The notes: generated by a model not told the origin, from the letters alone. DNA of 64,000 nucleotides from Parcubacteria group bacterium (GCA_016186325.1 JACPLW010000010.1:22856-86855); one strand, 5' to 3'. Positions 4,854-53,524 are shown, counted from the first letter of the stretch. A program made the numbers and translations.

Positions 4854-4876
4854 TATGAATGAGCTTTATGTATGTA

Positions 4877-4940
4877 GTGCGCATCCCGCCATAGCGGGAC
4901 GCCGCAAGGCATGGGAGTTCAAATCTCCCCCCGAGCACAA
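4877..4940 (+). other. tRNA-3'-half-like element E1: a GTCCCGC-type hairpin, a canonical T-arm and an acceptor 3' strand, with no D-arm
   Basis: tcccgccatagcggga hairpin, then GGGAGTTCAAATCTCCC (perfect T-arm), then CCGAGCAC-AAAA. No complementary 5' acceptor strand is present. It resembles the element at 22213-22290. Confidence 0.45.
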
Positions 4941-4946
4941 AATAAG

Positions 4947-5014
4947 AATAACCCCGCAGCTCCGACGCATACTGGTCGGAGCCCCGACTACAACGTCGGG
5001 GCTGCGGGGTTATT
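4947..5014. repeat. Family-B double-hairpin palindromic element (CTCCGAC...GTCGGAG / CCCCGAC...GTCGGGG), intergenic copy
   Basis: aataaccccgcagc[tccgacgcatactggtcgga][gccccgactacaacgtcggggc]tgcggggttatt: two hairpins nested inside an outer stem, sitting between convergent genes. Confidence 0.6.
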
Positions 5015-5468
5015 CTTCATGGTGTTTTATTTCTATCTTTTTGGTTTTGGTTCTTTCTGATTTCGGGAGTTTTATAGTGAGTACGCCGTTTTTCAGAGTA
5101 GCAATTGATTTATCGGTTTGAACGTCAACCGGCAGAATTATTGAACGGGAAAACGGTCCCCAATAACATTCCTGATAAAAATAATCATCTTTGATTACAG
5201 ACTCCTCTATTTCCCGCCGACCGCGAACGGTCACCATATCATTAGTAATAGCAATGTCTAAATTTTCCGGTTTGACTCCGGCAATGGTGGACTTTATTAC
5301 AATATCGGCGGGCGTCTGATAAACATCAATAGAGAGCTGTCCCTCTGTTTCGCCCGATTCCCAATTATTGATTTTTTCCATCTCTTCTTTTTCTTTCATA
5401 ATTTTCTTTTCGTTTTGGCCGTTATCAGAGGCATTTATCGGACCGATTAATTTTTCTAAAAAAGACAT
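5010..5468 (-). CDS. Hsp20/alpha-crystallin family small heat shock protein
   Basis: The C-terminal GVLTIKLPK and the overall alpha-crystallin domain pattern identify it. Confidence 0.75.
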   Translation of the reverse strand: MSFLEKLIGPINASDNGQNEKKIMKEKEEMEKINNWESGETEGQLSIDVYQTPADIVIKSTIAGVKPENLDIAITNDMVTVRGRREIEESVIKDDYFYQECYWGPFSRSIILPVDVQTDKSIATLKNGVLTIKLPKSERTKTKKIEIKHHEE

Positions 5469-5645: not shown

Positions 5646-6431
5646 TTAATTATCTGTTAGATTTCTAACGGGGTCAACTGTTATTTGTTGATAAGTTTTA
5701 TAGTGCTTGAGGCGATGGAAAAGATAGATAACTAAAGCCGCGGCACCGCCCAAGGTAATACCGGTTAAAAATACGCGCAAAAAATCATTCTCATTAGTTA
5801 TGAGAAAATTGTAAATGCCATGAAGAATTACAGCACTAAAGAGTCCAACAAGAATTAAGCGCGCGTCTTTTTTTACGAAATAATAGACAGCGAAAAAGTA
5901 TCCCGCAATCCCGGATGCCAAGCCGTGCAATGCTACGGCACTTATAAATCGTAAAGATACAAAATTAAGGGTTTCGCTTACGTAGCCGGGCGTGCCAAGC
6001 GGTATGTATGAAAAAATAGCAAAAACATTTTCTATTGCCGCAAAGCCTAAAGCGGCGGTAATGACGTAAATCATGCCATCAACCGGCTCGTCTAAAATCG
6101 GATTTTTGTTTAAAGCAAGATGAACCGCGCCGTATTTTGACGCCTCTTCTACTAGCGGCGCGATAAAAATCAAAAGCAGGATGCTTTCTATAGCAGGCAA
6201 CAACTCAAAGTAACCGAAAAATCTCGACAGAACCATTTCAAGAAAAATTACAAGCGGCGCCAAAGCGACGCCCATTAAAAATATTGTAAAAAGCCAATAT
6301 CGCGGCTCCGGGTGGTCGTCTTCCCTAAGATAAAAAAGTAGCCAAATCAAACTGGGAAGAACGGCTAGAATTATCGTTGGTATTAATGCGGACGGTTCTT
6401 GATTAAGCATTTTATTTCGGCCATTCTTCAA
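5646..6431 (-). CDS. PrsW-family intramembrane metalloprotease
   Basis: Multi-TM protein with the motifs EEASKY (EExxK), FAAIEN (FxxxE) and HGIYN (Hxxx[ND]). The true start may be the ATG near 6410, which would remove the overlap with valS. Confidence 0.55.
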   Translation of the reverse strand: MKNGRNKMLNQEPSALIPTIILAVLPSLIWLLFYLREDDHPEPRYWLFTIFLMGVALAPLVIFLEMVLSRFFGYFELLPAIESILLLIFIAPLVEEASKYGAVHLALNKNPILDEPVDGMIYVITAALGFAAIENVFAIFSYIPLGTPGYVSETLNFVSLRFISAVALHGLASGIAGYFFAVYYFVKKDARLILVGLFSAVILHGIYNFLITNENDFLRVFLTGITLGGAAALVIYLFHRLKHYKTYQQITVDPVRNLTDN

Positions 6432-8616
6432 TCATAATCGGTTTTCCCCGACGCTTTCGGTCGGGGCTCCGACCCCCGCTTTGCGGGGCGTCGGAGTTAT
6501 TCAATATTCCCCAAATTTCTTCGGTTAAAAAAGGAAGAAAGGGGTGGAGCAGTTTCAATAAATCTTCGTGGACTTTTATAAGGACTTCTTGAGTTTGCTG
6601 TCTTGCTTTTTCATCGGCAAGCTCCGACGCTTTGGTCGGAGCTCCGACTTCTTCAGAACGTCGGAGCTGTTTTTTTGCGGTTTCAATATAAATATCGGCG
6701 TATTCGTGCCAGAAAAAATCGTAAAGTTTATGAAGTGCCTGTCCAAACTCGTACTTTTCTATCCTGTTGCCGACTTCAACAATTGTTTTTTTGAGACCAC
6801 TTAAAATTTTCTTATCCGCTTCAGTTAAATTTTGATTTTTGCTTGCCCGCCGAAGCCTTGGCGTAGGCGGGATTTTTGAATTCACGTTTTGTTTTACAAA
6901 ACGCGTGGCGTTCCATATCTTATTACAGAATTTTTTGCCGGTTAACATCGCATCTTCATTAAACCGAATGTCCTGACTGCCGAGATTTTGGTACATCATA
7001 CCGAAGCGAGTAGCGTCAGCACCGTATTTTTCAATTAAATCAATCGGGTCAACACCGGTACCTCGAGATTTAGACATTATTTTACCTTCTTTATTAAGAA
7101 CCGTAGCGTGAATGTGTGTGGTGTTAAAAGGTGATTGGCCTGTAAATTCCAATCCTGAAAAAATCATTTTGGCAATCCAAATATCTCGAATATCTCTTGC
7201 TGAAGTAATAAAGTCGGTAGGATGGTATTTTTTAAGGTCGTTTGTTTTGTTGGGCCAGCCAAGTGTCGCAAAAGGCCAAAGCGCCGAAGAAAACCAAGTA
7301 TCCAAAACATCGGTTTCTCCCTCTAAAGGAATTTTGTGACCCCACCAAAGTTGGCGGGAAATATTCCAGTCCCTTTCATTTTTAAGGCGATTTAATAAAA
7401 CTTTCTCCCATTTTTGCGGGTGAATAATTGTTTTTTTCTTTTTTATTGCGTCAATTGCCAGTTTGGCAAGCTTTTCCATTTTCAAAAACCATTGCTCGGA
7501 CGGCAGAGGTTCAATGACCGAGTTACAGCGGTCGCAGCGGGCGATATTGTGCTCGTAATCTTCTATTTTTTCAATTAACCCGATGGCTTCAAGGTCTTTA
7601 ACTATTTGTTCGCGCGCTTCAGTCACTTTCATTCCCTTATAGCGCAAGCCGGCGTTCTCGTTCATTCGGCCGTGTTCATCAATTATAGTGATTGAAGGTA
7701 AGTTATGACGTTCCGCGATTTCAAAATCCGTTATATCGTGCGCCGGCGTAACCTTAATAATGCCGGTTCCAAATTCCGGGTCCACAGATTTATCTGCTAT
7801 TACCTTTATTTTAATTTTTTTGGTTTTAGCCGGCTGATTATTCGGCAAATCGTTGTCTATAGATTCTATCTCCAAATCTTTTCCCCAGTATTTTTTGTAA
7901 CGTTTGTCATTAGGGTGTACCGCTAAGGCAGTGTCGCCAAGTTTAGTTTCCGGTCTAGTCGTGGCGAGGGTGAGCGGTCCGTATTTGATAAAATAAAGTT
8001 TTGCGTGCTCCGGTATGTAGTCAACCTCTAGATCAGAGATTCCCGTGGCGCAGCGGACGCACCAATTAATAACGCGCTTGCCGCGATAAATCCAACCTTT
8101 TTTATAATAATGATTAAATGCTTCCACGACGGCTTTGGAGTAATCAGAATCCATAGTATATCTGGTTCGTGACCAGTCCGAGGATATGCCCAGCAATTTT
8201 AATTGGTCAAAAATAATATTGCCGTATTTTTCTTTCCACTCTTTAACTTTCTCAACAAATTTTTCCTGGCCTAGATCTTGGCGGCGCAAACCTTCTTTGC
8301 GAAGTTCTTTTTCAACAACATTTTGGGCAGAAATGCCGGCGTGGTCTATGCCCGGAAGCCAGAGCGTTTTAAAGCCCTTCATTCTTTTCATTCTCACCAA
8401 AATATCAACCTCGGTATTTTCCAAGACGTGGCCCATATGGAGCGAGCCGGTGATATTTGGCGGCGCCATCATCACCGAAAATTTCTTTTTTCTTTTTACG
8501 GCTTGCCCCGAAGAAGGCGGCGGCAGTTTATCAGGATTAAAAAAGCCCGATTCTTCCCAGAGCCGGTAAATTTTATCTTCAACTTCTTTTGGGTTATACG
8601 GAGAATCAAAGTTCAT
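6412..8616 (-). CDS. valS: Valyl-tRNA synthetase (class I). The C-terminal domain carries two in-frame palindromic-element insertions
   Basis: PPNITGSLHMGH (HIGH motif) and KIMSKS (KMSKS motif). Its coding sequence contains two family-B palindromic repeat copies (features at 6446-6496 and 6620-6667). Confidence 0.8.
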   Translation of the reverse strand: MNFDSPYNPKEVEDKIYRLWEESGFFNPDKLPPPSSGQAVKRKKKFSVMMAPPNITGSLHMGHVLENTEVDILVRMKRMKGFKTLWLPGIDHAGISAQNVVEKELRKEGLRRQDLGQEKFVEKVKEWKEKYGNIIFDQLKLLGISSDWSRTRYTMDSDYSKAVVEAFNHYYKKGWIYRGKRVINWCVRCATGISDLEVDYIPEHAKLYFIKYGPLTLATTRPETKLGDTALAVHPNDKRYKKYWGKDLEIESIDNDLPNNQPAKTKKIKIKVIADKSVDPEFGTGIIKVTPAHDITDFEIAERHNLPSITIIDEHGRMNENAGLRYKGMKVTEAREQIVKDLEAIGLIEKIEDYEHNIARCDRCNSVIEPLPSEQWFLKMEKLAKLAIDAIKKKKTIIHPQKWEKVLLNRLKNERDWNISRQLWWGHKIPLEGETDVLDTWFSSALWPFATLGWPNKTNDLKKYHPTDFITSARDIRDIWIAKMIFSGLEFTGQSPFNTTHIHATVLNKEGKIMSKSRGTGVDPIDLIEKYGADATRFGMMYQNLGSQDIRFNEDAMLTGKKFCNKIWNATRFVKQNVNSKIPPTPRLRRASKNQNLTEADKKILSGLKKTIVEVGNRIEKYEFGQALHKLYDFFWHEYADIYIETAKKQLRRSEEVGAPTKASELADEKARQQTQEVLIKVHEDLLKLLHPFLPFLTEEIWGILNNSDAPQSGGRSPDRKRRGKPIMIEEWPK
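6446..6496. repeat. Family-B palindromic element inserted in-frame within the valS 3' end
   Basis: ccccgacgctttcggtcggggctccgacccccgctttgcggggcgtcggag. It translates (minus strand) to ...APQSGGRSPDRKRRG.... Confidence 0.6.
6620..6667. repeat. Family-B palindromic element inserted in-frame within valS
   Basis: gctccgacgctttggtcggagctccgacttcttcagaacgtcggagc. It is nearly identical to the intergenic copy at 22435-22484 and translates to ...RRSEEVGAPTKASELAD.... Confidence 0.65.
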
Positions 8617-10019: not shown

Positions 10020-11873
10020 ATGCCTGAAGAACTTGACCGATCTGATGGGCCGATTAATGTGGAGCAACTCTTATTAGAGCTTCGCGATATTAACCTAAAA
10101 ATTCCCCATGTTAAGCCGACAGAAATTCAAGAGCAGCTTCGTGAGTCGGCGAAAAAATTGCGCGCGAAGTTAGAAGAGCTTTTTAAGAGAATTGAAAACG
10201 ATCATGAAAGGCGAGTTCATCTTACGCAGGCTTTAGAGAGGGCTTCGGCTGAAATTGAAAGACTTACGGCTCCGCCCCTTCCTTATGGTTATGTGGATCG
10301 CATTCACGATGATGGCACGATTGATGTTTTTATTAACAAGGATAATAGAAGGCGCGTTAATGTCTCTCCAGAAGTTAATGTTAAAGAATTGAAAACCGGT
10401 CAGCGGGCGCTCTTAAGTAATATAAACTACACCATTTTAGAAATTGATGAGGAATGGGAAAAGATTGGAGAAGAAGGCAAGGTCTCTGCTCTTCTAGGTG
10501 AAGACATAGTGAGAGTGGTCACTCATCTTGATGAAGTTCATGATGTAATCTTAGCCGCGCCTTTGAGAGAACAAAAAATTCGCGAAGGCGATTCCCTTCT
10601 CATTTTTGGAAATTTTGCTTTTGCTAAGTTACCCAAAGCAGAAACCGATGAGCTTCTGCTTGAAAAAGTGCCCGAAATTGGTTTCGCCCAAATCGGCGGC
10701 TTGAAAAATCAGGTTGAAATACTGCTTGAGGCCATTGAATATCCGGCGCTTTATCCGGAATTGTTCGCGCTTCATAAGCTCAAGCCGACTAAGGGCGTCT
10801 TGCTTTACGGGCCTCCCGGTTGCGGCAAAACACTTTTGGCCAAAGCCGTGGCTAACTTATTGGCGCAGAAGACGCGTAAGAAAATAGGCGATGCAAATAT
10901 CTGTGCTTATTTCATCAATATTAAAGGTCCGGAACTTCTTAATAAGTGGGTTGGCGAAACAGAGAGAAAAATCCGCGAAGTATTCCAGCGTGCCAGAGAA
11001 AAGGCGGTAGAAGGCTCCCCCGTTATTATCTTTTTTGACGAATTTGATTCTCTTTTCAGAACCCGCGGTTCGGGGATTTCTTCCGATATTGAGTCAACTG
11101 TCGTGCCACAGTTTTTATCCATGTTGGATGGCGCTGAGGAGCTTAATAATGTCATTGTTATAGGCGCCTCCAATAGGCAAGACCTAATTGATCCAGCGAT
11201 ACTGCGCCCCGGCCGTTTTGATATCAAGATTAAGGTTGACCGGCCTGATGAACTTGGCGCCAAAGAAATTCTTGGAATTTATGTTACTCCCGATTTGCCT
11301 TGGGGCGAAGATTCCGAAGGCAAGTCGTATGTTGGCCAGAAATTTCATTCGGTTGTTAACCGTTTGCATGGCAATAAACCATATAGCGTTGATTTAAGTA
11401 CGCCGGAACTAGTAGTTGAACACATGATCAAGGTTATTGTTGAATATTTGTATTATGTCGGTCCGCCGATTGCTTGGACTGACAGGCGCGGCAACCAGCA
11501 TGAATACAACACCGAATGCATTGAAATTACTTGGGCCGATGGAGAAAGGAAAATGTTATATGTTAAGGATATTTTGGTTTCCGGTGCCATGATTGAAAGC
11601 ATCGTAAATCGCGTTAAGAAAATAGCCATTAAACGCGCCGTCACTGGTAAAGGAGGCATTAAAATGGTTGATTTTTATACGGCCATAAGAGACGAAATCA
11701 AAGAAAGCAGTGACTTGCCGAATACCAATAATCCTGATGATTGGGCCAAGATCATCGGCCAGCGTTCGGAGAGCGGCCAGCGGATTGTTAATGTCCGCCC
11801 CATTATTGGGACACAGAGGGTGGCTAGTTCCCGGAGTACAGAACATGTTGTTACTACCGGCCAATATTTGTAA
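10020..11873 (+). CDS. mpa: Mpa/ARC-type AAA+ ATPase (proteasome-associated ATPase homolog) ending in the GQYL motif
   Basis: N-terminal coiled coil, Walker A GPPGCGKT, Walker B IIFFDEFD, and a C-terminal ...TTGQYL*. In actinobacterial Mpa the GQYL tail is the 20S proteasome docking motif. Confidence 0.75.
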   Translation: MPEELDRSDGPINVEQLLLELRDINLKIPHVKPTEIQEQLRESAKKLRAKLEELFKRIENDHERRVHLTQALERASAEIERLTAPPLPYGYVDRIHDDGTIDVFINKDNRRRVNVSPEVNVKELKTGQRALLSNINYTILEIDEEWEKIGEEGKVSALLGEDIVRVVTHLDEVHDVILAAPLREQKIREGDSLLIFGNFAFAKLPKAETDELLLEKVPEIGFAQIGGLKNQVEILLEAIEYPALYPELFALHKLKPTKGVLLYGPPGCGKTLLAKAVANLLAQKTRKKIGDANICAYFINIKGPELLNKWVGETERKIREVFQRAREKAVEGSPVIIFFDEFDSLFRTRGSGISSDIESTVVPQFLSMLDGAEELNNVIVIGASNRQDLIDPAILRPGRFDIKIKVDRPDELGAKEILGIYVTPDLPWGEDSEGKSYVGQKFHSVVNRLHGNKPYSVDLSTPELVVEHMIKVIVEYLYYVGPPIAWTDRRGNQHEYNTECIEITWADGERKMLYVKDILVSGAMIESIVNRVKKIAIKRAVTGKGGIKMVDFYTAIRDEIKESSDLPNTNNPDDWAKIIGQRSESGQRIVNVRPIIGTQRVASSRSTEHVVTTGQYL

Positions 11874-11883
11874 TAAAGTAAAC

Positions 11884-11912
11884 ATCCGCGCAAATTGCGC
11901 GGATATTTTATT
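11884..11912 (+). terminator. Rho-independent terminator after mpa
   Basis: atccgcgcaaattgcgcggat followed by attttattt. Confidence 0.55.
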
Positions 11913-11962
11913 TCTGATACCATGTTTTAAGTGATTTGTACTTTTAAAAGAGGAGAAATCAA

Positions 11963-13729
11963 ATGCAGGTCCTTGTTTCAGATATCGACTATTATGATGG
12001 CTACGGAGATTTTTCAGACCTTTTTTATCGATGTTTGCCCAGACGCCGTTTTAACCGGATACGCTATGAGCTTCCTATGGTTTTTGGAAGCGAAACAGAA
12101 TTTGGTTTGACATACAGCAGGGTACTCGATAAAGAAAAGGCAAAATTTTTTCCGGTAGATTCTCCGGAGACAGTTTTTCTCCATATTATTAAGAAAGTTG
12201 CCGAAAAAACAAAAGCCTTTGCGCGCGATCCGGCATCGCCATGGTTAAGAAACGGACTAAATCATTTTGATCGGATCAGCATTGGTAAAATAACCGAAGC
12301 GGCGATTTCAGACGATATTTCCTGTCTTCCCGTTAAGCTTAAAAAAGCAGTTGAAAGAACAGGACTATCGGCTAAAGATTTTTATTTGGGAGAAACAGGA
12401 ATATTTTTAGAAGAAGGCAGCCGTCTTTACATCGACGGTCCGCATTTAGAATCGTCTATCAGTGAATGCCGGGAACCGGGCGAAGTAGTTTGTCATGAAA
12501 AAGCAATGGAGAATATTATTACCGGAGTTTTACCTGAACTGGAAAATGAGATCGGTCGTGAAATTGTTATTCTTAAGGATAATACCGATAGGCACGGCAA
12601 CAGTTATGGCTGTCATACAAACTATCTGCTTATGCTGGAATTTTTCAATCGGCTTTACGTAAAAAACGAATGGAGCGATGCTTGGTTAAGTTTTATTACC
12701 TCCGGCATAATTGTTACCGGCAGCGGTAAGGTCGGCTATGAATGCTATAGCGAGCCGTGCGACTACCAAATTTCTCAAAGAGCCGATCATTTTATGAGAA
12801 TTTTAGGCAGCGGTACGATGTATTTTCGTCCGCTTATCAACTTTAGAGACGAACCGTTGGCCGACAGAGCGAAATACGGCCGTTTTCATGTAATTTTAGA
12901 TGATTCCAATATGGCCGAATGGTCCATTTATCTTAAAATTGGCACTAAAGCGCTGGTTTTAAATATGCTTCAGCATCAATTTTTCGAAGGTGGAAAAACT
13001 ATCAAGTATAAAGAGCTTTTTATAGATAATCCGATTGAATCTCTAAAATTCATTTCCAGGGATTTGACGTGTAAGAAGAAAGTCCTGTTAGCGGACGGCA
13101 GTGAAAAATCAGCTCTTGAAATTCAAGAGGAATGGCTAAGTATTGTTGAAGATTTTTATTCAGGTTCTGATTCTTATCCTTTTTGGATTTCGGATGTTAT
13201 AGCAAAATGGAAATTAACTCTACGGTGGATTAGAGATGATGATGACAATCTTGATTCGGTTTTGGACTGGCGGATTAAACTTTCCCTCATCAAAGGTATA
13301 AAAGAAAAATATGCCAAAAGAGGAATAACTCTTGATTGGCGAGATGGTCGGATTAAAGATTTAGACTGCCTTTACCATAGTTTGGGTCCCAAAGGTCTTT
13401 ACAATTGCGCTTTAAAAGCGGGTCACATTGAAAGAATTGTAACAGATGAACAAATTGAAATAGCTAAAACTGAGCCACCCGAAAACACCAGAGCATGGCT
13501 GCGCGGCCGGTTTATAAGGCACTTTTTGCCACATCTTGTCGATGCCAGCTGGGAGCTCCTGTCTTTTTATATTAAAATCGGTGATTTTGAAACATTGGTG
13601 TCGCTTAAGATGGACCCGCTCTGCAGTACGCGCCATAAGGTGGGCGAGTTGTTTACAGAAACAGACAGTTATGAAAGTTTTTGCAAGAGGTTTCTTTCCA
13701 TGTATTTAAGTGGTAGGAGTCTTTTTTAA
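11963..13729 (+). CDS. Pup ligase/deamidase family protein (PafA/Dop homolog 1; longer form, possibly Dop-like)
   Basis: FGSETEFG (the GIETEYG-like N-terminal motif), GNSYGCHTNYLL, SQRADHF, RPLINFRDEPLADRAKYGRFHVILDDSNMAEWSIYLKIGTKALVL, LYHSLGPKG and PPENTRAWLRGRFI all match conserved PafA/Dop blocks. Strong SD aggag upstream. Confidence 0.75.
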   Translation: MQVLVSDIDYYDGYGDFSDLFYRCLPRRRFNRIRYELPMVFGSETEFGLTYSRVLDKEKAKFFPVDSPETVFLHIIKKVAEKTKAFARDPASPWLRNGLNHFDRISIGKITEAAISDDISCLPVKLKKAVERTGLSAKDFYLGETGIFLEEGSRLYIDGPHLESSISECREPGEVVCHEKAMENIITGVLPELENEIGREIVILKDNTDRHGNSYGCHTNYLLMLEFFNRLYVKNEWSDAWLSFITSGIIVTGSGKVGYECYSEPCDYQISQRADHFMRILGSGTMYFRPLINFRDEPLADRAKYGRFHVILDDSNMAEWSIYLKIGTKALVLNMLQHQFFEGGKTIKYKELFIDNPIESLKFISRDLTCKKKVLLADGSEKSALEIQEEWLSIVEDFYSGSDSYPFWISDVIAKWKLTLRWIRDDDDNLDSVLDWRIKLSLIKGIKEKYAKRGITLDWRDGRIKDLDCLYHSLGPKGLYNCALKAGHIERIVTDEQIEIAKTEPPENTRAWLRGRFIRHFLPHLVDASWELLSFYIKIGDFETLVSLKMDPLCSTRHKVGELFTETDSYESFCKRFLSMYLSGRSLF

Positions 13730-13735
13730 AGTTTT

Positions 13736-13761
13736 AAACCCCTTCGTTTCGAAGGGGTTTT
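13736..13761 (+). terminator. Rho-independent terminator
   Basis: aaaccccttcgtttcgaaggggtttt. Confidence 0.6.
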
Positions 13762-13863
13762 ACGTATAAAAACCAGGATATGGCAATTTTCTTAAAGCTA
13801 CGTTAAGATATAAAAAGTCATTTTTATTCTTTAACAACTTATTAAGATAGGAATGAGAGTGCT

Positions 13864-15360
13864 ATGAGAGATCGAGTCATGGGAGGCGAAATCGAATGGC
13901 TTGGTAACTTTAGGCCCAATCCTAACTGCCGATGGCAGGAAGCCGGGAACCTGTTTGAATCAATTAAAGCATTTCTTTGCAAAAAATATAGTATTAACAA
14001 TTCTGGAGAGTTATTTCTTCCAAACGGCTCTCGTTTTTACCATGAGTCAACGGGTAATCATATTGAGACCACGACCCCCGAATGTGGAAGCGCAAGAGAT
14101 GTCTTAAAATACGAAAAATGGCAAGAGCGCTTTATGTGCCGACTTTCAAAAGAACTGAAGGACAGTCTGGGAGAATTCGTGTTTCAAAAAAAGAACAGCA
14201 GTGATAATTTAGCCGATACCCGCGGCTCTCATGAGAGTTATTTGTCCGATAAAATGTTTAGTGATTTACTGAGTTCTGCTCAAGCAAGATTATATTCTAT
14301 GCCCCCCACTATGGACCCGCGGCTTAATTATCTTATTCTGTTTTTAATAACACGTCAGATTTTTACCGGTAGCGGCGGCGGCATTTTAAGCTGCCAAGAC
14401 AACAGTCGCAACGATTATGTAATTTCTCCTAGGGCTTATTTCATTGAGACGATTTTTAGCTCTTCATCAACCAGCTCGCGGCCGATTATTCACATTCGCA
14501 AAGAAGCGTTAGCCGATGACTCCAAATATTGGCGCAATCATTTTATTTTAGGCGATGCTAATATGGCCGACCTTTCAATCTTTCTTAAATTCGGAACGAC
14601 AAGCGCCGTTTTGGAGATGATCGAGGAAGGTTTTTACGATAAGACATTGAATATGTTTGATCCTCGTGAAGCTGCCAATCTATTTAAAAAAATCTCCGGC
14701 GATTTAACCCTGCGAAACGTGCCAATTCGTTTGGTGGGTGGCGGAGATGAAGGTGTTATAGGAATCCAAAAACGATTCTGCCAAGATTTCAAAAGATACC
14801 TCGGCTATTCCGGTCAAGGCGGAGAAAAATTAGAAATTGCGCAAAGATGGTGGGAGATTTTGGAATGCCTGCAAGGGGACGATGAAAAAGTTTATCGGGA
14901 GTTAGATTACAAGATTAAGTTTAGGCTTTTAAATGACTATATGACGGCAAGGGGTCTTTCTCTTTCTGATAACAAGGTTAGGATGCTCGATCTTGACTAC
15001 CACAGTTCGGATCCGAAAAAAAGCTTTTATTACTTGTTAAAGAATCGTCCGAGTTCTAAATTTGAAAGTTTGGTGAGTGAAAGTAAAATTTTGGAAAGAG
15101 GGGGCCTACCTCCAAATACCAGGGCTAAGTTAAGAGCTCAAATTCAATTGCTTCTTGAAGAATTAGACATGTCTTATAGTTTAAATTGGGATTTGGTGTC
15201 GTTCAAACCCATTGGTTCAGATGTACCTGAAAGAAAATTACACTTACCAGAACCGCGCGTTTCATCATTTGACGGTCTAAATTTTGAAAAAAACTATGAT
15301 GCCATAGATTATCTAAACTCTTTAAAGCCCGGCGCTATTAAAATTCGTAAAGCCCCCTAG
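13864..15360 (+). CDS. Pup ligase/deamidase family protein (PafA/Dop homolog 2; divergent)
   Basis: MGGEIEW, RPIIHIRKEALADDSKYWRNHFILGDANMADLSIFLKFGTTSAVLEMIEEG, LDLDYHSSDP and PPNTRAKLRAQ. Same family as the preceding gene, but the GNSYGCHENY block is replaced by RGSHESYL. Confidence 0.7.
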   Translation: MRDRVMGGEIEWLGNFRPNPNCRWQEAGNLFESIKAFLCKKYSINNSGELFLPNGSRFYHESTGNHIETTTPECGSARDVLKYEKWQERFMCRLSKELKDSLGEFVFQKKNSSDNLADTRGSHESYLSDKMFSDLLSSAQARLYSMPPTMDPRLNYLILFLITRQIFTGSGGGILSCQDNSRNDYVISPRAYFIETIFSSSSTSSRPIIHIRKEALADDSKYWRNHFILGDANMADLSIFLKFGTTSAVLEMIEEGFYDKTLNMFDPREAANLFKKISGDLTLRNVPIRLVGGGDEGVIGIQKRFCQDFKRYLGYSGQGGEKLEIAQRWWEILECLQGDDEKVYRELDYKIKFRLLNDYMTARGLSLSDNKVRMLDLDYHSSDPKKSFYYLLKNRPSSKFESLVSESKILERGGLPPNTRAKLRAQIQLLLEELDMSYSLNWDLVSFKPIGSDVPERKLHLPEPRVSSFDGLNFEKNYDAIDYLNSLKPGAIKIRKAP

Positions 15361-15436
15361 GGCTTTTATTTTTTAAACTTCCAGCCTTCATGTTTAGCGG
15401 TTTTTGTGATATAAAGAACGCATCATATAGAGGATT

Positions 15437-16993
15437 ATGGGTAAACATTATTTAAATATCGGACAGGCTTCTGAAATAACCGATTCAAAAGATCGGCGTT
15501 TTTACCGTTTTTTGGAAATTCTTCCCGGCCTACTTTCTTGGAGCACTATTTTTTTAGTCATTTTTCTTTCTTGGGCCGAGCCTTTTCTTGTCGCCATTTT
15601 CATAATTTTTTTTGACGTTTATTGGCTTTTAAAGACAATTTTCCTTTCTCTTCACATGAGAGTCGCTTTTAACAAGATGAAAGAAAACTTAAAGAGAAAT
15701 TGGCAAAATGAATTGGAAACCGTTCCGGTAGGTTCCGAGGTTCTATCGGGAACGAGTTGGCGCAATATTTATCACCTTGTGATTTTGCCGATGTATAAAG
15801 AACCGCTGGAAGTAGTGCGCGCCAGTTTTTTAAGCTTGGCAAAAATTAATTATCCGCTTAGCAAAGTTATTGTTGTTTTGGCGATTGAAGAGCGCGGCGG
15901 CGAACCGGCTTTAACGGTAGCGCGTGAAATTGAAAAAGAATTTGGAGGCGCGTTTTTTAAATTTTTGGTATCCGTTCATCCTAAAGATATTACCGGCGAA
16001 GTTGCGGGAAAAGGGTCTAACGATTTCTGGGCTATTAGGGCGGTTAAAAATAAAATTATTGACACACTTAACATTTCTTACGAAAGAATTATTGTTTCTG
16101 TTTTTGACGCCGACACTATCACTCATCCCGAATTTTTTGGCCGCCTTGCTTATGCGTATTTGTCTTGTAAAAAGCCGCTTCGCTCCTCGTTTCAGCCGAT
16201 TCCGCTTTTTATAAACAATATTTGGCAGGCGCCGGCTTTCTCAAGAATTTTTGCTTTTTCAACGACTTTTTGGCAGATGATTCAGCAATCACGGCCGGAA
16301 CGGCTTATAACTTTTTCTTCCCAGTCAATAGGTTTTAAGCCTCTTAGCGAGATCGGTTTTTGGCAAACCAACGTGGTGAGCGAGGACTCAAGAATTTTCT
16401 GGCAATGTTTGTTAAATTTTGACGGCGATTGGCAAACGGTGCCGTTGTTTTTTCCGGTTTATATGGATGCCAATATCGGAAATACTTTTTGGCAAACCAT
16501 AAAAAACCAATATAAACAAATTCAACGCTGGGCTTACGGCGTTGAAAATAAACCCTATTTTCTATTTGGTTTTTCTAAAAATAAAAAAATTGAAAGAAAG
16601 AAAAAATGGCTTCTTAGTTTTATCATGGTTGAAAGCGCCCATTCTCTTGCTACCAATTCTTTGATTATTTTCATGCTCGGATGGCTGCCGACGGTAATTG
16701 GAGGCGGTCGTTTTTCACAAACGCTTCTTTCTTATAATCTTCCTTATATCACTCGCCTTATAATGACTTTAGCAATGGTCGGTTTAGTTTTTACTGCCAT
16801 TATAGCCACAAATCTTCTTCCGCCAAAACCGCCGCATTACGGTCGGTTCAAGTGGTTTTTGATGATTGCCCAATGGTTTCTTTTTCCGATAAACATGATT
16901 GTTTTCGGTTCCATACCCGCTCTTGACGCCCAAACGCGATTAATGTTTGGAAAATATTTAGGTTTCTGGAGCACGCCAAAATCGATAAACTAG
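15437..16993 (+). CDS. Membrane glycosyltransferase family 2, processive (cellulose/chitin-synthase-like)
   Basis: Multi-TM protein with FDADT (DxD), SEDSR (ED) and QIQRW (QxxRW) motifs. Confidence 0.6.
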   Translation: MGKHYLNIGQASEITDSKDRRFYRFLEILPGLLSWSTIFLVIFLSWAEPFLVAIFIIFFDVYWLLKTIFLSLHMRVAFNKMKENLKRNWQNELETVPVGSEVLSGTSWRNIYHLVILPMYKEPLEVVRASFLSLAKINYPLSKVIVVLAIEERGGEPALTVAREIEKEFGGAFFKFLVSVHPKDITGEVAGKGSNDFWAIRAVKNKIIDTLNISYERIIVSVFDADTITHPEFFGRLAYAYLSCKKPLRSSFQPIPLFINNIWQAPAFSRIFAFSTTFWQMIQQSRPERLITFSSQSIGFKPLSEIGFWQTNVVSEDSRIFWQCLLNFDGDWQTVPLFFPVYMDANIGNTFWQTIKNQYKQIQRWAYGVENKPYFLFGFSKNKKIERKKKWLLSFIMVESAHSLATNSLIIFMLGWLPTVIGGGRFSQTLLSYNLPYITRLIMTLAMVGLVFTAIIATNLLPPKPPHYGRFKWFLMIAQWFLFPINMIVFGSIPALDAQTRLMFGKYLGFWSTPKSIN

Positions 16994-19827: not shown

Positions 19828-19923
19828 TTTAATGAATAAATATAGTTCATAGTTGCGAAGGTCACCTTCGCAACCTACTGGCGGACTTTGTCACGCCGTA
19901 GGTTCGCTTCGGCGAACCGAAGG

Positions 19924-22212: not shown

Positions 22213-22290
22213 TTTTGCGTTCTCGGAGGGATTCGAACCTCCAATAATCCCGCCAAGGCGGGATCGTGATACTCGCCCGCCCAAACTTTT
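22213..22290 (-). other. tRNA-3'-half-like element E2 (hairpin tcccgccttggcggga, T-arm GGAGGTTCGAATCCCTCC, acceptor 3' strand)
   Basis: No D-arm or matching 5' acceptor strand could be found. The architecture is shared with E1 at 4877-4940. Confidence 0.4.
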
Positions 22291-22291
22291 G

Positions 22292-22365
22292 CGCGCCCTG
22301 AGGGATTCGAACCCCCGACCCCTTGTTCCGAAGACAAGTGCTCTAATCCGCTGAGCTAAGGGCGC
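22292..22365 (-). tRNA. tRNA-Arg (anticodon TCG), flanked by a 19-bp perfect inverted repeat that extends the acceptor stem
   Basis: Minus-strand GCGCCCTTAGCTCAGCGGATTAGAGCACTTGTCTTCGGAACAAGGGGTCGGGGGTTCGAATCCCTCAGGGCGCG. The flanks cccgcccaaacttttgcgc and gcgcaaaagtttgggcggg are exact reverse complements. Confidence 0.75.
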
Positions 22366-22434
22366 AAAAGTTTGGGCGGGTCAATTTCACCACGAGGACA
22401 AAAACCTGTTGCCGCAGGTGACCGTTCTGTCCAA

Positions 22435-22484
22435 CTCCGACGCTTCTAGGTCGGAGCTCCGACTTTTTACTTAGAACGTCGGAG
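22435..22484. repeat. Family-B palindromic element, intergenic copy
   Basis: ctccgacgcttctaggtcggag ctccgactttttacttagaacgtcggag. It interrupts a degenerate tRNA-like 5' fragment (GCGCCCGTAGCTCAAC...). Confidence 0.6.
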
Positions 22485-22576
22485 TTGAGCTACGGGCGCA
22501 TTAAAATAGATTTATAAAATAACACAAAATTGCTTAAAAGTAAATATCCACACTCACCAATGAGTGTGGATATAAA

Positions 22577-32897: not shown

Positions 32898-33569
32898 CTA
32901 GTAGCTGGGAGGTGTGGCGATCCACCGATCGAAACAGACGGTGCCGGTGGATCGCTGTTCGCACACCTGGGCTACGTAGCCCATACTTGGTGTCGAGCGG
33001 TGGTAGCCGCCGTAACTGTAGCCGCCACCGTTTCCGCTCAACGAGATGTTGAAGTTGAGCTGGGAGAGACTGATGGCTCGCTTGGGAGCCGGCGCCGGCG
33101 CGAAGGGTGCCTGGATCTCTTCCGGCCTGGGGGCCGGCGGAGAAAACATCGGCGGCAGGGTTGCCGCCGGCGCCGCAGGCCGCGGCGCGCAGAAGTAGTC
33201 GTCGGCCTTTGAGCACATCGTTGCCGGCGGCTGAACCGGCGTCGGGACGACCGCGGAAGGAGCCGGCGCACAGCAGCAGCACGTCGCTGCCGTGGTAGGC
33301 GCAGGTGCCGTGGGGACGACTGCCGGCGCCGGCGCAGCTGGCGCAGGCGCTGTCGGCGACACCTTCTTCGGAGCGGCGGCGGGCACCTTCTTCGCGGCCG
33401 GCTTGGCCGCGGGCTGAACCGCCTTCGAAGGCGGCGGCAGAACCACTCGCACGGCCTCGTGCCGCACGATGGCCGGGCCGTAGCCCGACAAGTTGAGCGC
33501 GATTAGAAGGCCGAGCGCGCCGAGCGCCATGAACAGAAAGTTCAGAACCCATCGCTTTGTCATCGTCAT
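32898..33569 (-). CDS. GC-rich foreign gene: Pro/Ala-rich secreted or membrane-anchored protein, inserted antisense between rplC and rplD
   Basis: N-terminal TM/signal MTMTKRWVLNFLFMALGALGLLIALN, then PAAKPAAKKVPAAAPKKVSPTAPAPAAP repeats. Its base composition is strikingly GC-rich against the AT-rich flanks. Own SD ggaggg and a minus-strand terminator at 32825-32865. The likely start is the second ATG at about 33563. Confidence 0.5.
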   Translation of the reverse strand: MTMTKRWVLNFLFMALGALGLLIALNLSGYGPAIVRHEAVRVVLPPPSKAVQPAAKPAAKKVPAAAPKKVSPTAPAPAAPAPAVVPTAPAPTTAATCCCCAPAPSAVVPTPVQPPATMCSKADDYFCAPRPAAPAATLPPMFSPPAPRPEEIQAPFAPAPAPKRAISLSQLNFNISLSGNGGGYSYGGYHRSTPSMGYVAQVCEQRSTGTVCFDRWIATPPSY

Positions 33570-33712
33570 CCCTCCTTAGGGATTTCGGATGTTACGGTTT
33601 AGAACGTTTTTTATTGACCACTTCGACTCAGCTCAGGGTCAATCCTGAGCTTGTTGAACGGATTGACAAACAACTTACTTTTGTACTAACATTGTATCAT
33701 ATTTTTTAAGTT

Positions 33713-34348
33713 ATGTCAAGGGTTAAAGTCTATAATCAAGAAGGAAAAGAAATAGCCGAAATAAAGCTTAATGAAGCCATTTTTGGGTTGCATTGGAACG
33801 CCGACTTGGTTCACCAAGCGGTAAGAGTTGCAATGGCTAATAAAAGGCAGGTTGTGGCCTCAACTAAGGATAGGAGCGAAGTTAGGGGCGGCGGACGCAA
33901 GCCATGGAGGCAAAAAGGCACCGGTCGGGCTCGTCACGGTTCAACTCGTTCCCCTTTATGGAAGGGCGGTGGCATTACTTTCGGACCGACAATCGAAAGA
34001 AACTTCAAATTAAAAATTAACAAGAAAATGGCGCGTAAAGCGTTTTTAACAGCCCTTTCGGCCAAAGCAAGAGACAATGAGATTTTGATTTTTGATGATT
34101 TGAAAATTCTATCGTTAAAGACGAAAGAAATGGCAAAGATTATGGCTAATTTCCCGCAAATAAAAAAAGGACTTTTGGTCTTATTTGAGAAAAACGATAT
34201 GCTTAAAAATGCCAGCCGCAATTTATTAAAACTTGAAGTCGTTAATATAGATAATCTTAATATTTTTAATGTTTTAAAGCATCGGCATCTTATTTTTACA
34301 AAGCCCGCCATTGAGTATTTAAATAAAAAATATGACGCTCCTAAATAA
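33713..34348 (+). CDS. rplD: 50S ribosomal protein L4
   Basis: Position in the operon and the L4-like sequence. Confidence 0.85.
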   Translation: MSRVKVYNQEGKEIAEIKLNEAIFGLHWNADLVHQAVRVAMANKRQVVASTKDRSEVRGGGRKPWRQKGTGRARHGSTRSPLWKGGGITFGPTIERNFKLKINKKMARKAFLTALSAKARDNEILIFDDLKILSLKTKEMAKIMANFPQIKKGLLVLFEKNDMLKNASRNLLKLEVVNIDNLNIFNVLKHRHLIFTKPAIEYLNKKYDAPK

Positions 34349-35929: not shown

Positions 35930-36484
35930 ATGCAGTATAAATTTCATCTAAATAAACTAAGAATGGCGCCAAGAAAAACTAGATTGATTGCGAATCTTAT
36001 TAAAAGAATGCCGGTAACGCAGGCGGAAGCGCAATTGCAGTTTCAAAAAAGAAGGGCGGCCCTGCCAATTTTAAAATTGCTTAAATCGGGCGTGGCTTCA
36101 GCCGTCCATAATTTTAATTTATCGCCGGAAAATTTGTATGTTTTAAACATTTTTGTTGATGAGGGGCCGATGCTTAAGAGATTTGGGCCAAGAGCATTCG
36201 GCAGAGCTGGCGCCATTCATAAGAAAACTAGTCGAATTACTCTGATTTTGGAAGAAAGAATTATGGCGGGCGCCAAAAAGAGAGCAAAGATTATTAAGGA
36301 AATCAAATCGGAAAAGGAGGCGGTAAAAGAAGTGTCGAAATCTCGACGCTTTGGAAAAGTTGGGGCTCCGACCCGCTCCGCCGAAGCTCCAGCGAGGCGA
36401 GCCGAAGCATCGGAGGAAATTAAGCCGACTCGGAAAACCGAAAGTTTTACTAGGAGAATATTTAGAAGAAAGGTAATCGGATAA
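35930..36484 (+). CDS. rplV: 50S ribosomal protein L22 with a long C-terminal extension containing a palindromic-element-like segment
   Basis: L22 core plus a tail ...SRRFGKVGAPTRSAEAPARRAEASEE, encoded by ggggctccgacccgctccgcc. Confidence 0.8.
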   Translation: MQYKFHLNKLRMAPRKTRLIANLIKRMPVTQAEAQLQFQKRRAALPILKLLKSGVASAVHNFNLSPENLYVLNIFVDEGPMLKRFGPRAFGRAGAIHKKTSRITLILEERIMAGAKKRAKIIKEIKSEKEAVKEVSKSRRFGKVGAPTRSAEAPARRAEASEEIKPTRKTESFTRRIFRRKVIG

Positions 36485-41682: not shown

Positions 41683-42950
41683 TAGAAAAAATCGTACAAA
41701 TTTTTAAAATAAAAGATTTAAGAAACCGCATACTTTTTGTTTTATCGCTTCTTGTTGTTTTTCGCCTTATGGCTACTATTCCCGTTCCGGGCGTTGATGT
41801 TTTGCGTTTGAGGGAATTTTTTGAAGGAAATCAGTTTTTCGGATTGCTCAACATCTTTTCCGGCGGCGCTCTATCCAACCTTTCAATTGTGATGCTCGGC
41901 GTTGGTCCCTTTATCACCGCTTCAATTATTATGCAGCTTTTGACTATGCTTATCCCGGCCTTGAAAGAACTATATAATGAAGAAGGAGAAATGGGCCGTC
42001 AAAAATTCAATCAATACACGCGATATTTATCCGTTCCTTTGGCCGTTCTTCAGGGTTATGGCCTTCTGGTTCTCTTAAAGAACCAACAAATTATCGCAAG
42101 CGGAAATTCTCTTATGTTTTTTTCGTCGGTTTTTGTAGTCACGGCCGGTTCAATATTTTTAATGTGGCTTGGCGAACTTATAACCGAAAAAAAAGTCGGA
42201 AACGGCATTTCACTTATGATTTTTGCCGGTATTGTCGCCAGTTTGCCTGTTGATTTAAAGCAGACGTTAGCAACTTTTGATCCTTCACAGGTTCCTACTT
42301 ATCTTGCTTTTATTTTAGTATCAATTGTTGTTATTGCCGGAGTAGTGGTAGTTACCGAAGGGGAAAGGCCGATTCCGGTGGCTTATGCCAAGAGAGTGCG
42401 CGGTAACAGAGTTTATGGCGGCTCTATGGCGCATTTGCCTTTGAGGGTAAATCAAGCCGGCGTTATTCCCATTATTTTTGCCCTTTCAATTTTACTTTTC
42501 CCACAGCTAATTGCCCAGATCTTATCGGGTTTTAATATTGCTTGGATAAGAGAGCTATCTCTTCTTCTTGTTGGTTTTCTTAATAACCAGGCGGTTTACG
42601 GTTCATTTTATTTTATTTTGGTAATTTTGTTCACTTATTTTTATACTGCCGTTACTTTTGATCCCGGCCAGATTTCTCAAAATCTTCAAAAACAAGGCGG
42701 ATTTATTCCTGGAATAAGGCCGGGCGGTTCTACTGCCGGATATTTAAAACATATCTTAAATCGGGTAGTTTTAATTGGCGCCATCTTTTTAGGAGTTATC
42801 GCGGTCTTGCCTATTTCGGTCCAATATTTTACCGGCATAACGACTTTAACGGTCGGCGGCACTTCGCTTTTAATTGTTGTTTCGGTGGTTCTTGAAACAA
42901 TGAAGCAGGTTAGGTCGCAGCTTGTAATGAGAGAATATGAAAGTTTTTAA
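41679..42950 (+). CDS. secY: Preprotein translocase subunit SecY
   Basis: 10-TM protein of 423 aa in the canonical position after L15. Confidence 0.9.
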   Translation: MIEKIVQIFKIKDLRNRILFVLSLLVVFRLMATIPVPGVDVLRLREFFEGNQFFGLLNIFSGGALSNLSIVMLGVGPFITASIIMQLLTMLIPALKELYNEEGEMGRQKFNQYTRYLSVPLAVLQGYGLLVLLKNQQIIASGNSLMFFSSVFVVTAGSIFLMWLGELITEKKVGNGISLMIFAGIVASLPVDLKQTLATFDPSQVPTYLAFILVSIVVIAGVVVVTEGERPIPVAYAKRVRGNRVYGGSMAHLPLRVNQAGVIPIIFALSILLFPQLIAQILSGFNIAWIRELSLLLVGFLNNQAVYGSFYFILVILFTYFYTAVTFDPGQISQNLQKQGGFIPGIRPGGSTAGYLKHILNRVVLIGAIFLGVIAVLPISVQYFTGITTLTVGGTSLLIVVSVVLETMKQVRSQLVMREYESF

Positions 42951-43097
42951 TAATGATTTTATATTTTATTCTCTTGCTTTCCTCGTCCCGCCCCAGCGAG
43001 CGGGACTCGGGGATTCGCGCTCGCTCGTCCCGCCAAGGCGGGACACCATGCCCGCTTCGCGCTCATAACCCGCTCGAGAATAAAATATAAAATCATT
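42951..43097. repeat. MITE-like structured element, family A copy 2. It exactly fills the secY-adk intergenic gap
   Basis: Terminal inverted repeats taatgattttatattttattctc and gagaataaaatataaaatcatta. Internal hairpins gtcccgccccagcgagcgggac and gtcccgccaaggcgggac. Confidence 0.6.
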
Positions 43098-45147: not shown

Positions 45148-45585
45148 ATGAAGATTTTAGCTATTGATTACGGGAAAAAATGGATTGGGCTGGCGATTTC
45201 TGACGATGGGCGCCGGCTGGCTTTTGCTTATAAAACCTTGGAAAATAATTCCAAAACTTTTTCTGTTTTAAATGAAATAATAAAAAAAGAAGAAATTTAT
45301 AAAATAGTTATTGGCTTGCCTTTGAATAAAGAGATGAAACCGACGCAACAAACAACTGAAACGGAAAACTGGGCGCAAGAACTTATTAAAAAAGTTGCAA
45401 CTCCGACGCCTTTGGGTCGGAGCCCCGACCGGAACTCCGACGGTACCGTCGGAGAAAGCGTCGGGGTTGATTTTGAAAATGAAATTTTTACAAGCAAGGC
45501 GGCGGATAAACTCGGAGTAAAAAACCAGCACGCCGCCGCCGCCGCAATTTTTCTTCAGGATTATTTGGATAGAAATAACAAATAA
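45148..45585 (+). CDS. ruvX: Holliday-junction-resolvase-like protein RuvX/YqgF, with an in-frame family-B palindromic insertion
   Basis: MKILAIDYGKKWIGLAISD N-terminal RNase-H-like motif. The internal segment ...PTPLGRSPDRNSDGTVGESVGV... is encoded by the repeat at 45401-45466. Confidence 0.7.
   Translation: MKILAIDYGKKWIGLAISDDGRRLAFAYKTLENNSKTFSVLNEIIKKEEIYKIVIGLPLNKEMKPTQQTTETENWAQELIKKVATPTPLGRSPDRNSDGTVGESVGVDFENEIFTSKAADKLGVKNQHAAAAAIFLQDYLDRNNK
45401..45466. repeat. Family-B palindromic element (nested hairpins) inserted in-frame in ruvX
   Basis: ctccgacgcctttgggtcggag ccccgacc ggaa ctccgacggtaccgtcggag aaag cgtcgggg. Confidence 0.6.
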
Positions 45586-45587
45586 AT

Positions 45588-45743
45588 TATTAAAATTTAA
45601 TATCTTTGTTCTCACGCTTTTCTCGGTTGCCCCAGCGAGGCAACCGAGAGGATTCGCCCTCGCTCTGTCCCGCAAAGCGGGACAACCGTGCCCGCTCGGG
45701 CTCATAACCCCGCTTTGAAAACAAAGATATTAAATTTTAATAA
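45588..45743. repeat. MITE-like structured element, family A copy 4
   Basis: Terminal inverted repeats ttattaaaatttaatatctttgtt and aacaaagatattaaattttaataa. Internal ggttgccccagcgaggcaacc and gtcccgcaaagcgggac. The core is similar to copy 2. Confidence 0.6.

Positions 45744-51481: not shown

Positions 51482-53524
<2,043 letters not shown>

Follow-up and report, generated by a model that had tools for sequence, protein, structure and literature searches.

Two groups of short palindromic DNA repeats, the Rickettsia palindromic elements (RPEs) and REPs (repetitive extragenic palindromic sequences), are the closest described counterparts of an element that we find within ruvX in a 64,000-nucleotide stretch of DNA from a Parcubacteria group bacterium (GCA_016186325.1, JACPLW010000010.1:22856-86855; this whole stretch is called the window below). 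We consider it probable, at roughly three chances in four, that the insert in ruvX belongs to a family of short, GC-rich palindromic DNA repeats, copies of which have been inserted in frame in ruvX, valS and rplV. The window holds five strong copies, labelled E1 to E5, of which E5 is the one in ruvX, and a weaker one in rplV. The element behaves like REPs and RPEs but fits the definition of neither.

As two later accounts summarise them, RPEs (Ogata et al. 2000; PMC2229807, PMC3733652) are repeated palindromes that occur in intergenic regions and in frame in conserved protein genes, where they are translated. They are also placed where the protein fold tolerates them, as well as in RNA genes, and have no known transposase. 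One account (PMC2229807) describes RPEs as single long stem-loops of 105-146 bp with terminal inverted repeats of about 12 bp, confined to Rickettsia. The copies in the window are similarly divided between intergenic (E1 and E4) and in-frame positions (E2, E3, E5 and the rplV copy). Unlike RPEs, they are only 40-66 nt long and consist of two or more short hairpins with a common 7-bp stem; they show no sequence relationship to RPEs, and their hosts are Patescibacteria rather than Rickettsia.

REPs, and the REPINs that they form, are GC-rich imperfect palindromes of 20-40 nt, mostly arranged as inverted dimers and lacking target duplications (Di Nocera et al. 2013, PMC3733652; Bertels and Rainey 2011, PMC3116915). 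Intragenic REP dimers encode 20-30 amino acids in known proteins, DNA repair genes included, and REPs carry an unpaired GTAG or CGTC tag at one end, with a CCA-like tail in the CGTC families (PMC3733652). Our element shares with them the head-to-head arrangement of 20-22-nt GC-rich units. However, it has no spacer between the units, no unpaired GTAG or CGTC tag and no CCA tail. The CGTC that can be read in it consists only of the last loop base and the first three stem bases, and at positions 1-2 its 7-bp stems do not have the A-T pairs that have been reported in the CGTC families. No REP-associated tyrosine transposase (RAYT) was found near 120 copies with a single distant query, E. coli RayT (best E 0.28), and the stem sequence is common to a superphylum rather than a genus.

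REPs are also mainly extragenic, whereas 52 of 121 copies of the present element lie in open spans of at least 200 amino acids and 42 lie in spans of fewer than 100; below, these two classes are called intragenic and intergenic. The 121 copies, used for all frame and length statistics, come from the listed matches of a scan of one genome per species with the exact double-hairpin pattern (CCGAC-N-GTCGGRGCYCCGAC-N-GTCGG), which gave at least 120 stretches. Flank statistics are based on 106 copies from many genomes.

The ruvX insert

The window has a G+C content of about 41% and a gene content like that of the Candidate Phyla Radiation (CPR), with an S10-spc ribosomal operon, secY, adk, map, ruvX, valS, ligA, gatCA and type IV secretion pilins. 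A metagenome-assembled genome (MAG) designated 'Parcubacteria group bacterium' has a protein that matches the window's RuvX at 100% identity, and the next-closest relatives are named Candidatus Azambacteria. The gene and its insert comprise the following features.

45148..45585, plus strand: ruvX/yqgF, 145 amino acids, host of E5 (Pfam PF03652, E 3e-22; 100% match to the MAG protein; AlphaFold2 model)
45401..45466, plus strand: element E5, 66 nt, three hairpins, in frame in ruvX at residues ~85-107 (TPTPLGRSPDRNSDGTVGESVG)
45401..45422, plus strand: hairpin A of E5, CTCCGAC gcctttgg GTCGGAG (inverted repeats)
45423..45466, plus strand: hairpin B of E5, in which CCCCGAC ... GTCGGGG enclose an enlarged loop (inverted repeats)
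45435..45454, plus strand: hairpin C of E5, a perfect palindrome of 20 nt (CTCCGACG gtac CGTCGGAG) inside the loop of B

The full element reads CTCCGAC gcctttgg GTCGGAG CCCCGAC cggaa CTCCGACG gtac CGTCGGAG aaagc GTCGGGG and contributes ...ATPTPLGRSPDRNSDGTVGESVGV... to the RuvX open reading frame (ORF). A preliminary description of this DNA had reported nested CTCCGAC/GTCGGAG and CCCCGAC/GTCGGGG hairpins inserted in frame in ruvX, and we find both the hairpins, at 45401-45466, and the insertion. An 81-nt stretch covering E5 has a predicted folding energy of -48.1 kcal/mol (z = -6.0), equalled by none of 200 shuffled sequences. A covariance model (R1) made from 41 copies taken from other genomes (alignment A5) matches 45399-45456 with 43.4 bits (E 2e-8).

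Most of the 120 best RuvX homologs are 123-128 amino acids long and free of any insert, reading ...KKV-EVP-IDFENE... across the site; orthologs without the insert mostly have 123-125 residues. Extra residues at exactly the E5 site, in versions of 12 to 26 amino acids, are present only in the closest relatives (78-85% identity). The ruvX DNA of relatives occurs in three states (labels such as L001 denote loci of other genomes). The site is empty in L003, L129 and L130, and in L001 it contains a plain double hairpin, CTCCGAC gcattctg GTCGGAG CCCCGAC tggaac GTCGGGG. The third state has either one more hairpin (the window) or an entire second double hairpin (L002) at or within the second loop; hairpin C is part of a 24-nt indel that distinguishes the window from L001.

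The inserts are lineage-specific, and we did not find them conserved in distant lineages independently of the palindrome, the pattern that would have counted against the preliminary description. A conserved protein motif without a DNA element was considered and rejected, as the inserts are absent from most orthologs, in contrast to a hairpin in the ligA gene of the window (51714-51734, CGCCGACCC aga GGGTCGGCG). The ligA hairpin was itself rejected as a sixth strong copy. It matches R1 at 51712-51745 with an E value of only 0.4, it encodes SPTQRVG, a conserved motif of NAD-dependent ligases, and it recurs in ligA of L002 and L003.

The preliminary description had proposed to check whether the inserts map to surface loops or tails. 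In the AlphaFold2 model of RuvX (mean predicted local distance difference test score, pLDDT, of 76), residues 83-105 form a coil between a helix (67-82) and a strand (106-111), and residues 87-103 are almost entirely below a pLDDT of 50. The alignment of RuvX to a solved nuclease (PDB 7w89) breaks over query residues 77-104. These data support the placement of the E5 peptide in a predicted disordered loop of RuvX. The rplV copy, correspondingly, is located in a hypervariable linker that follows the L22 domain.

Architecture and further copies

The basic unit of the family is a 20-22-nt hairpin formed by CYCCGAC, a loop, and GTCGGRG. Two units placed head to head without a spacer make a double hairpin of 40-45 nt, and further hairpins are sometimes present within the loops; in about 10 of the 121 copies these additional hairpins have the same arms. 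CTCCGAC occurs 18 times in the window where 3.25 occurrences are expected, and the double-hairpin pattern is found at 5 places on the two strands where none is expected (none in 100 shuffles). Position 2 of the stem is variable and forms C-G or U-A in 81 of 82 cells and never G-U, a result reached by none of 500 shuffles. The alternative pairing of arm 1 with arm 4 is anticorrelated and performs worse than shuffles. The two hairpins of a pair tend to differ, CT/AG standing beside CC/GG, so that one long perfect palindrome is avoided. The loop begins with G after the 5' arm and ends with R before the 3' arm. This asymmetry is mirrored in the partner unit, so the element is a head-to-head dimer of the 20-22-nt unit. 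At its base the stem is invariant; its distal part and the loop differ freely from copy to copy and can take up additional hairpins. Pairing of one flank with the other, which would extend the palindrome, was sought and found to be no greater than in shuffles.

The peptides encoded by the element follow from this architecture. GRSPD (ggt cgg agc ccc gac) is the exact reverse complement of VGAPT (gtc ggg gct ccg acc), and the two are the readings of the opposite strands of one junction, GTCGGAG|CCCCGAC. That a single palindrome gives GRSPD in one direction and GAPT in the other, as had been noted before, accounts for the recurrence of these short peptides in ruvX, valS and rplV. In all six frames the arms are free of stop codons, and the residues they encode are small or polar (G, R, S, P, D, A, T and V).

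The model R1 detects five strong copies in the window, all with E values of 1e-7 or lower. Four of these lie outside ruvX, and two of the four are in frame in valS, which bears out the earlier proposal that the same family is present in other genes. The remaining copies and their host genes are listed here.

4960..5001, unstranded: element E1, 42 nt, intergenic (R1 57.5 bits)
6446..6496, minus strand: element E2, a 51-nt in-frame copy close to the C-terminal end of valS (NSDAPQSGGRSPDRKRRG; R1 53.6 bits)
6622..6666, minus strand: element E3, a 45-nt in-frame copy in valS (RRSEEVGAPTKASE; R1 54.1 bits)
22435..22484, unstranded: element E4, 50 nt, intergenic, at a tRNA-like remnant (R1 52.9 bits)
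6412..8616, minus strand: valS, 734 amino acids, host of E2 and E3 (Pfam tRNA-synt_1 and Anticodon_1; homologs named valyl-tRNA synthetase)
35930..36484, plus strand: rplV (L22), 184 amino acids, with the L22 domain at residues 7-108, a variable linker and a conserved basic C-terminus
36341..36415, plus strand: decayed copy in the C-terminal extension of rplV, encoding RRFGKVGAPTRSAEAPARRAEASE

GGRSPD and VGAPT are the peptides that the two copies in valS yield. E3 is within the anticodon-binding domain of ValS, at a spot where relatives also vary, and among the aligned ValS orthologs it is common to the two closest relatives only. E2 is located 10 residues before the C-terminus and is present, among the same orthologs, in the window alone; the loop of one of its hairpins contains a further CCCCGC/GCGGGG hairpin.

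E1 occupies the centre (CAG|CTG) of an outer, terminator-like inverted repeat (4945-5016), with a tRNA-like fragment on one side and the 3' end of an hsp20 gene on the other. The sequence just upstream of E1 (4870-4940) resembles the 3' end of a tRNA or tmRNA (GGGAGTTCAAATCTCCCCCCGAGCACA); neither ARAGORN nor Rfam calls it. E4, upstream of tRNA-Arg(tcg), splits GCGCCCGTAGCTCAA | TTGGACAGAAC (22366-22500, minus strand), which looks like the 5' part of a tRNA cut at the D-loop. We considered E4 as an insertion in a working tRNA and rejected this possibility: deletion of the element, with edge offsets of up to 3 nt, gave no ARAGORN tRNA, and Rfam returned only chance hairpin matches in the surroundings. 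Because no tRNA is predicted with or without the element, the tRNA-like sequence around E4 is probably a pseudogene or remnant at best. A perfect inverted repeat of 16 bp (CCCGCCCAAACTTTTG ... CAAAAGTTTGGGCGGG) encloses the neighbouring tRNA-Arg(tcg) (22276-22381), as though this gene occupied the loop of a long hairpin.

A copy in rplV had been suggested as a possibility at 36355-36400. A related element is indeed present there, but that span misses part of it, and the copy extends over approximately 36341-36415. It reads TCTCGAC gctttggaaaa GTTGGGG | CTCCG[30-nt extra insert 36371-36400]GCCGAAGCA TCGGAG, the extra 30 nt in the second hairpin encoding TRSAEAPARR. Positions 36359-36373, GTTGGGGCTCCGACC (VGAPT), are identical to the GTCGGAG|CCCCGAC junction at 14 of 15 nucleotides. 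By itself the copy is a weak match to R1 (36339-36388, 10.2 bits, E 0.8). However, the orthologous position in L003 (2211-2259) scores 46.9 bits (E 3e-9) and carries an intact copy, CCCCGAC gttttggaaag GTCGGGG CTCCG..., from which the first hairpin of the window differs by three C>T changes that give TCTCGAC/GTTGGGG. At the same position L005 is AT-rich, encodes KEKIEMAAPK and contains no element. The intact ortholog and the absence from L005 support a copy that is real, though decayed. In an alignment of Azambacteria L22 proteins (A3) the C-terminal extension has a hypervariable middle and a conserved basic end, and RRFGKVGAPT-ASEE is present in a subset that includes the window and L003.

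Hairpins of this kind might instead act as RNA, serving as mRNA stabilisers, terminators or RNase III-type processing sites, as has been proposed for REP and Correia elements. The strong predicted fold would suit such a role, as would the position of E1 in a terminator-like hairpin between convergent units and the decay of the rplV hairpin through C>T changes alone, which leaves its pairs G-U-compatible. However, intact copies show no G-U pair in any of the 82 variable stem cells, and their stems are conserved in sequence, beyond mere pairing. Moreover, ORFs contain about half of the copies, and termination or cleavage there would do harm; no element in the window matches an Rfam family. We regard a function as RNA as decidedly unlikely.

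Distribution and proposed mode of spread

The family is not peculiar to this genome, a breadth that lay beyond the view of the preliminary description. Nearly all of the stretches with the exact pattern come from Patescibacteria of many named lineages. These are labelled Saccharibacteria, Paceibacteria/Paceibacterota, Wolfe-, Giovannoni-, Nomura-, Yanofsky-, Taylor-, Kaiser-, Jorgensen-, Brenner-, Harrison-, Taga-, Portnoy-, Ryan-, Uhr-, Komeili- and Doudnabacteria, Peribacteria and Minisyncoccia. The few matches outside the CPR among those listed are high-GC chance matches, one tandem repeat, and canonical elements in bins with other labels (L011, L015, L081 and L099), which are possibly mis-binned contigs. 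A viral collection of 2.9 million contigs gave 1 match. Neither the motif nor an element of this kind in CPR, Patescibacteria, Parcubacteria or Saccharibacteria was found described in searches of the literature, subscription journals being outside their coverage.

The family behaves as if copied and pasted, and copies within one genome have loop sequences in common. The Taylorbacteria genome MHSK01 has at least 14 near-identical 40-nt copies (among them L033, L041, L043, L054, L058, L068, L069, L074, L091 and L108). There the double hairpin is the centre of a larger repeat, ..cattcgtatccat [element] tcgtatattcgtat.., whose conserved flanks contain repeated ATTCGTAT motifs. In another Patescibacteria genome (L082, 4932-6838) multi-hairpin versions are in frame in tsaD and tsaE. 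The cggaa-CYCCGAC-ggtacc-GTCGGRG module of ruvX recurs in this tsaD, where it encodes RNPDGTVGECVG compared with RNSDGTVGESVG in ruvX, and tsaE contains a related ggtacc-looped hairpin.

A 7-bp arm that is identical in many CPR lineages could be explained by a conserved receptor, and the strictly Watson-Crick covariation fits a constraint at the level of DNA. Together with the single match in viral contigs, these observations favour hairpins that serve the host as DNA signals for a conserved CPR protein, such as a chromosome-organisation site or, these bacteria being naturally competent, a DNA-uptake signal, with the genic copies as a by-product of selection for high copy number. However, the density is low (5 elements in the 64-kb window and 1 in 20 kb of L003), the copies are insertions of 40-66 nt rather than substitutions, orthologous sites are frequently empty in close relatives, and no candidate binding protein was identified. 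We therefore consider a host signal unlikely. Known DNA uptake sequences (USS/DUS) occur about once per kb and arise mainly by substitution within genes. Our element is unlike them because its density is low (0.08 elements per kb for the window, 0.05 for L003) and its copies arise by insertion, with a change in length. Integron attC sites, which have RYYYAAC ... GTTRRRY core sites and lie at cassette boundaries beside an integrase, were also rejected as a match. By inspection, each of the CYCCGAC/GTCGGRG arms departs from the core consensus at two positions. The copies are scattered through housekeeping genes, and the scanned ORFs of the window include no integrase.

The repeated DNA element that we favour is seen most clearly as an insertion in valS. 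The empty site for E3 (L127) reads AAG CAA|CTG GCT GAT where the window reads AAA CAG[45 nt]CTT GCC GAT, an exact arm-to-arm insertion without target duplication. Similarly, E2 is an exact addition of 51 nt within an A-run (empty site L128), again with no duplication. A MITE (miniature inverted-repeat transposable element) has terminal inverted repeats and a target-site duplication and derives from an insertion sequence (IS). Our element is not a MITE, because E2 and E3 lack such a duplication; no parent IS was seen. The flanks of E4 and E5 are CAA|TTG, and E1, as described above, lies at CAG|CTG in a hairpin loop. Over the 106 copies, CAA or CAG adjoins 29% of element ends against a background of 3.2%, and the flank consensus, T-C-A-R | element | Y-T-G-A, is mirrored on the two sides. 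The CAR motif is present at both ends in 7 copies, at the left end only in 24, at the right end only in 24 and at neither in 51, so the ends are independent. A one-sided tag of the IS200/IS605 or REP type was also considered: a looser NAR motif gave an odds ratio of 0.24 and was co-oriented with the gene in 32 of 38 cases, an asymmetry confounded by the purine-rich coding strand. Given this confounding and the independence of the CAR ends, we claim no polarity.

Intragenic copies are under frame-preserving selection. Their length is divisible by three in 41 of 52 cases, compared with 10 of 42 intergenic copies (Fisher p = 1e-7), and 99 of the 121 copies are free of stop codons in at least five of six frames. 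This shows that the arm-to-arm unit is what inserts and that intragenic copies are read through. Long open spans contain 43% of the elements (52/121) and 65% of random 45-nt windows, a deficit expected under purifying selection.

We propose that the element spreads, or has spread, as DNA. The arm-to-arm unit would be inserted precisely and without target duplication, often at sites resembling CAR|YTG or inside hairpin loops already present. Copies whose length is a multiple of three and that land in a tolerant loop or linker would survive and be translated, because the arms are free of stops and encode small or polar residues. Mobilisation may proceed through folded single-stranded hairpins recognised by an enzyme at the conserved 7-bp base of the stem, a reading suggested by the constancy of this base next to a variable distal stem and loop. 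Local slippage may account for the gain and loss of single hairpin modules. We infer that the host has no use for the element, which would be either selfish or neutral. Single-strand transposition is known from the IS200/IS605 family, in which DNA with hairpin ends is inserted beside a short specific sequence and without target duplication. Our element differs in that no TnpA/Y1 gene was found among the 34 window ORFs scanned against Pfam, and in that its flank motif occurs on both sides with equal frequency and independently, whereas that of IS200/IS605 is on one side only.

Several observations weigh against this proposal. The ruvX site is not clean: the nearest empty alleles differ from the filled ones by 36 nt instead of the 42 nt of a double hairpin, and they have arm-like TTCCGAT/TCCCAAT at the position of the left arm, so that a second indel or an origin based on microhomology has to be assumed. 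Extra hairpins may not be insertions: they could reflect local slippage, or the shorter forms could result from deletion. The 34 non-ribosomal window ORFs include no transposase by Pfam. The RayT query gave no significant match among about 6,200 ORFs of at least 60 amino acids from the window and about 900 kb around the 120 copies, a search limited in reach by its one distant query and covering fetched loci rather than whole genomes. The case for translation comes from frame statistics rather than from peptides. Finally, an identical 7-bp stem over a superphylum is unusual for a selfish repeat, because REP families are specific to a species or genus, and a host function could be involved.

The irregular ruvX site also bears on a further explanation, in which template switching or slippage at arm-like sequences produced the hairpins in place and on repeated occasions, without a pre-formed element. 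The arm-like sequence in empty ruvX alleles and the 36-nt difference favour it, as do the frequency of same-arm hairpins in loops and the perfect complementarity of the arms. However, the same 7-mer and the same head-to-head architecture are present in many CPR lineages, near-identical 40-mers occupy many loci of one genome, entire multi-hairpin modules recur in unrelated genes, and E2 and E3 are clean arm-to-arm additions at sites without arm-like sequence. As E3 had no such precursor, local formation is tenable only for the gain and loss of hairpins within existing copies, and we judge it very unlikely as the source of the family.

A single family of in-frame palindromes throughout the Patescibacteria would be a second large case of translated selfish palindromes; in-frame palindromes in essential genes have so far passed for a peculiarity of Rickettsia and of a small number of bacteria rich in REPs. 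Possibly comparable elements exist outside bacteria: the GC clusters of yeast mitochondria and the double hairpins of Allomyces and chytrid mitochondria are short GC-rich palindromes in AT-rich reduced genomes, sometimes in frame in protein genes and also inside RNA genes, and have no known mechanism of mobilisation. These belong to eukaryotic organelles, and no sequence similarity to our element is expected. For the CPR, the element would offer an explanation at the DNA level for many of the odd low-complexity insertions in core proteins, with consequences for annotation, alignment trimming and phylogenomics of these uncultured organisms. It also poses a puzzle, in that genomes of about 1 Mb without a visible transposase have kept a 7-bp stem unchanged over very deep divergences. 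We suggest tentatively, as a possibility only, that the CYCCGAC double hairpin is an ancient system of the whole Patescibacteria superphylum, kept by a conserved hairpin-specific enzyme that evolves together with it or by a use to the host, and a major source of lineage-specific insertions in CPR core proteins. The proteins concerned would include ribosomal proteins, aminoacyl-tRNA synthetases, TsaD/TsaE and RuvX, and this would be tinkering between genome and proteome of a kind so far documented mainly in Rickettsia. As a simple marker, the R1 model could help to identify CPR contigs and to track polymorphic insertions through time series of metagenomes.

Other repeats and gene arrangements

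A second repeat family consists of MITE-like elements of about 140 nt at 42950-43097 and 45590-45735, just downstream of secY and ruvX. Each has an AT-rich terminal inverted repeat of 21-24 bp, and the two have homologous GC-rich multi-hairpin cores. The cores contain a GTCCCGC/GCGGGAC hairpin in both, a CCAGCGA loop, GGATTCGC and GCTCATAACC, and have no Rfam match. The CCAGCGAG motif of this family recurs in the 30-nt insert of rplV (3 occurrences compared with 0.9 expected). Other short peptides, KPSFAKATEGKE, WPASAKASAGKP and PQPPLNLPLTKGKKKRGS, recur in variable regions of the L22 (A3) and ValS (A6) alignments, and a hairpin in the window at 19852-19874 (GTTGCGAAGG tca CCTTCGCAAC) matches such peptides. 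This suggests further families of translated repeats in CPR proteins.

Between rplC and rplD, on the opposite strand, is a high-GC ORF (32898-33569, minus strand) whose product is a membrane-anchored Pro/Ala-rich protein with no Pfam match; positions 33001-34000 average 59% GC. Because an analogous high-GC antisense ORF is present at the same place in a related genome (L005, 7286-7840, 62-66% GC), it is not an accident of assembly. At 10020-15360 a proteasomal-type AAA ATPase with OB domains is followed by two genes of the Pup-ligase family, a pupylation-like module that is unusual for a minimal CPR genome. The ribosomal operons of related genomes also contain unexpected genes. In L005 a pair resembling a diversity-generating retroelement (bAvd and reverse transcriptase), preceded by an unannotated 201-amino-acid ORF, lies between rpsH and rplF (15065-16447), and the operon of L002 contains PD-(D/E)XK_3 ORFs.

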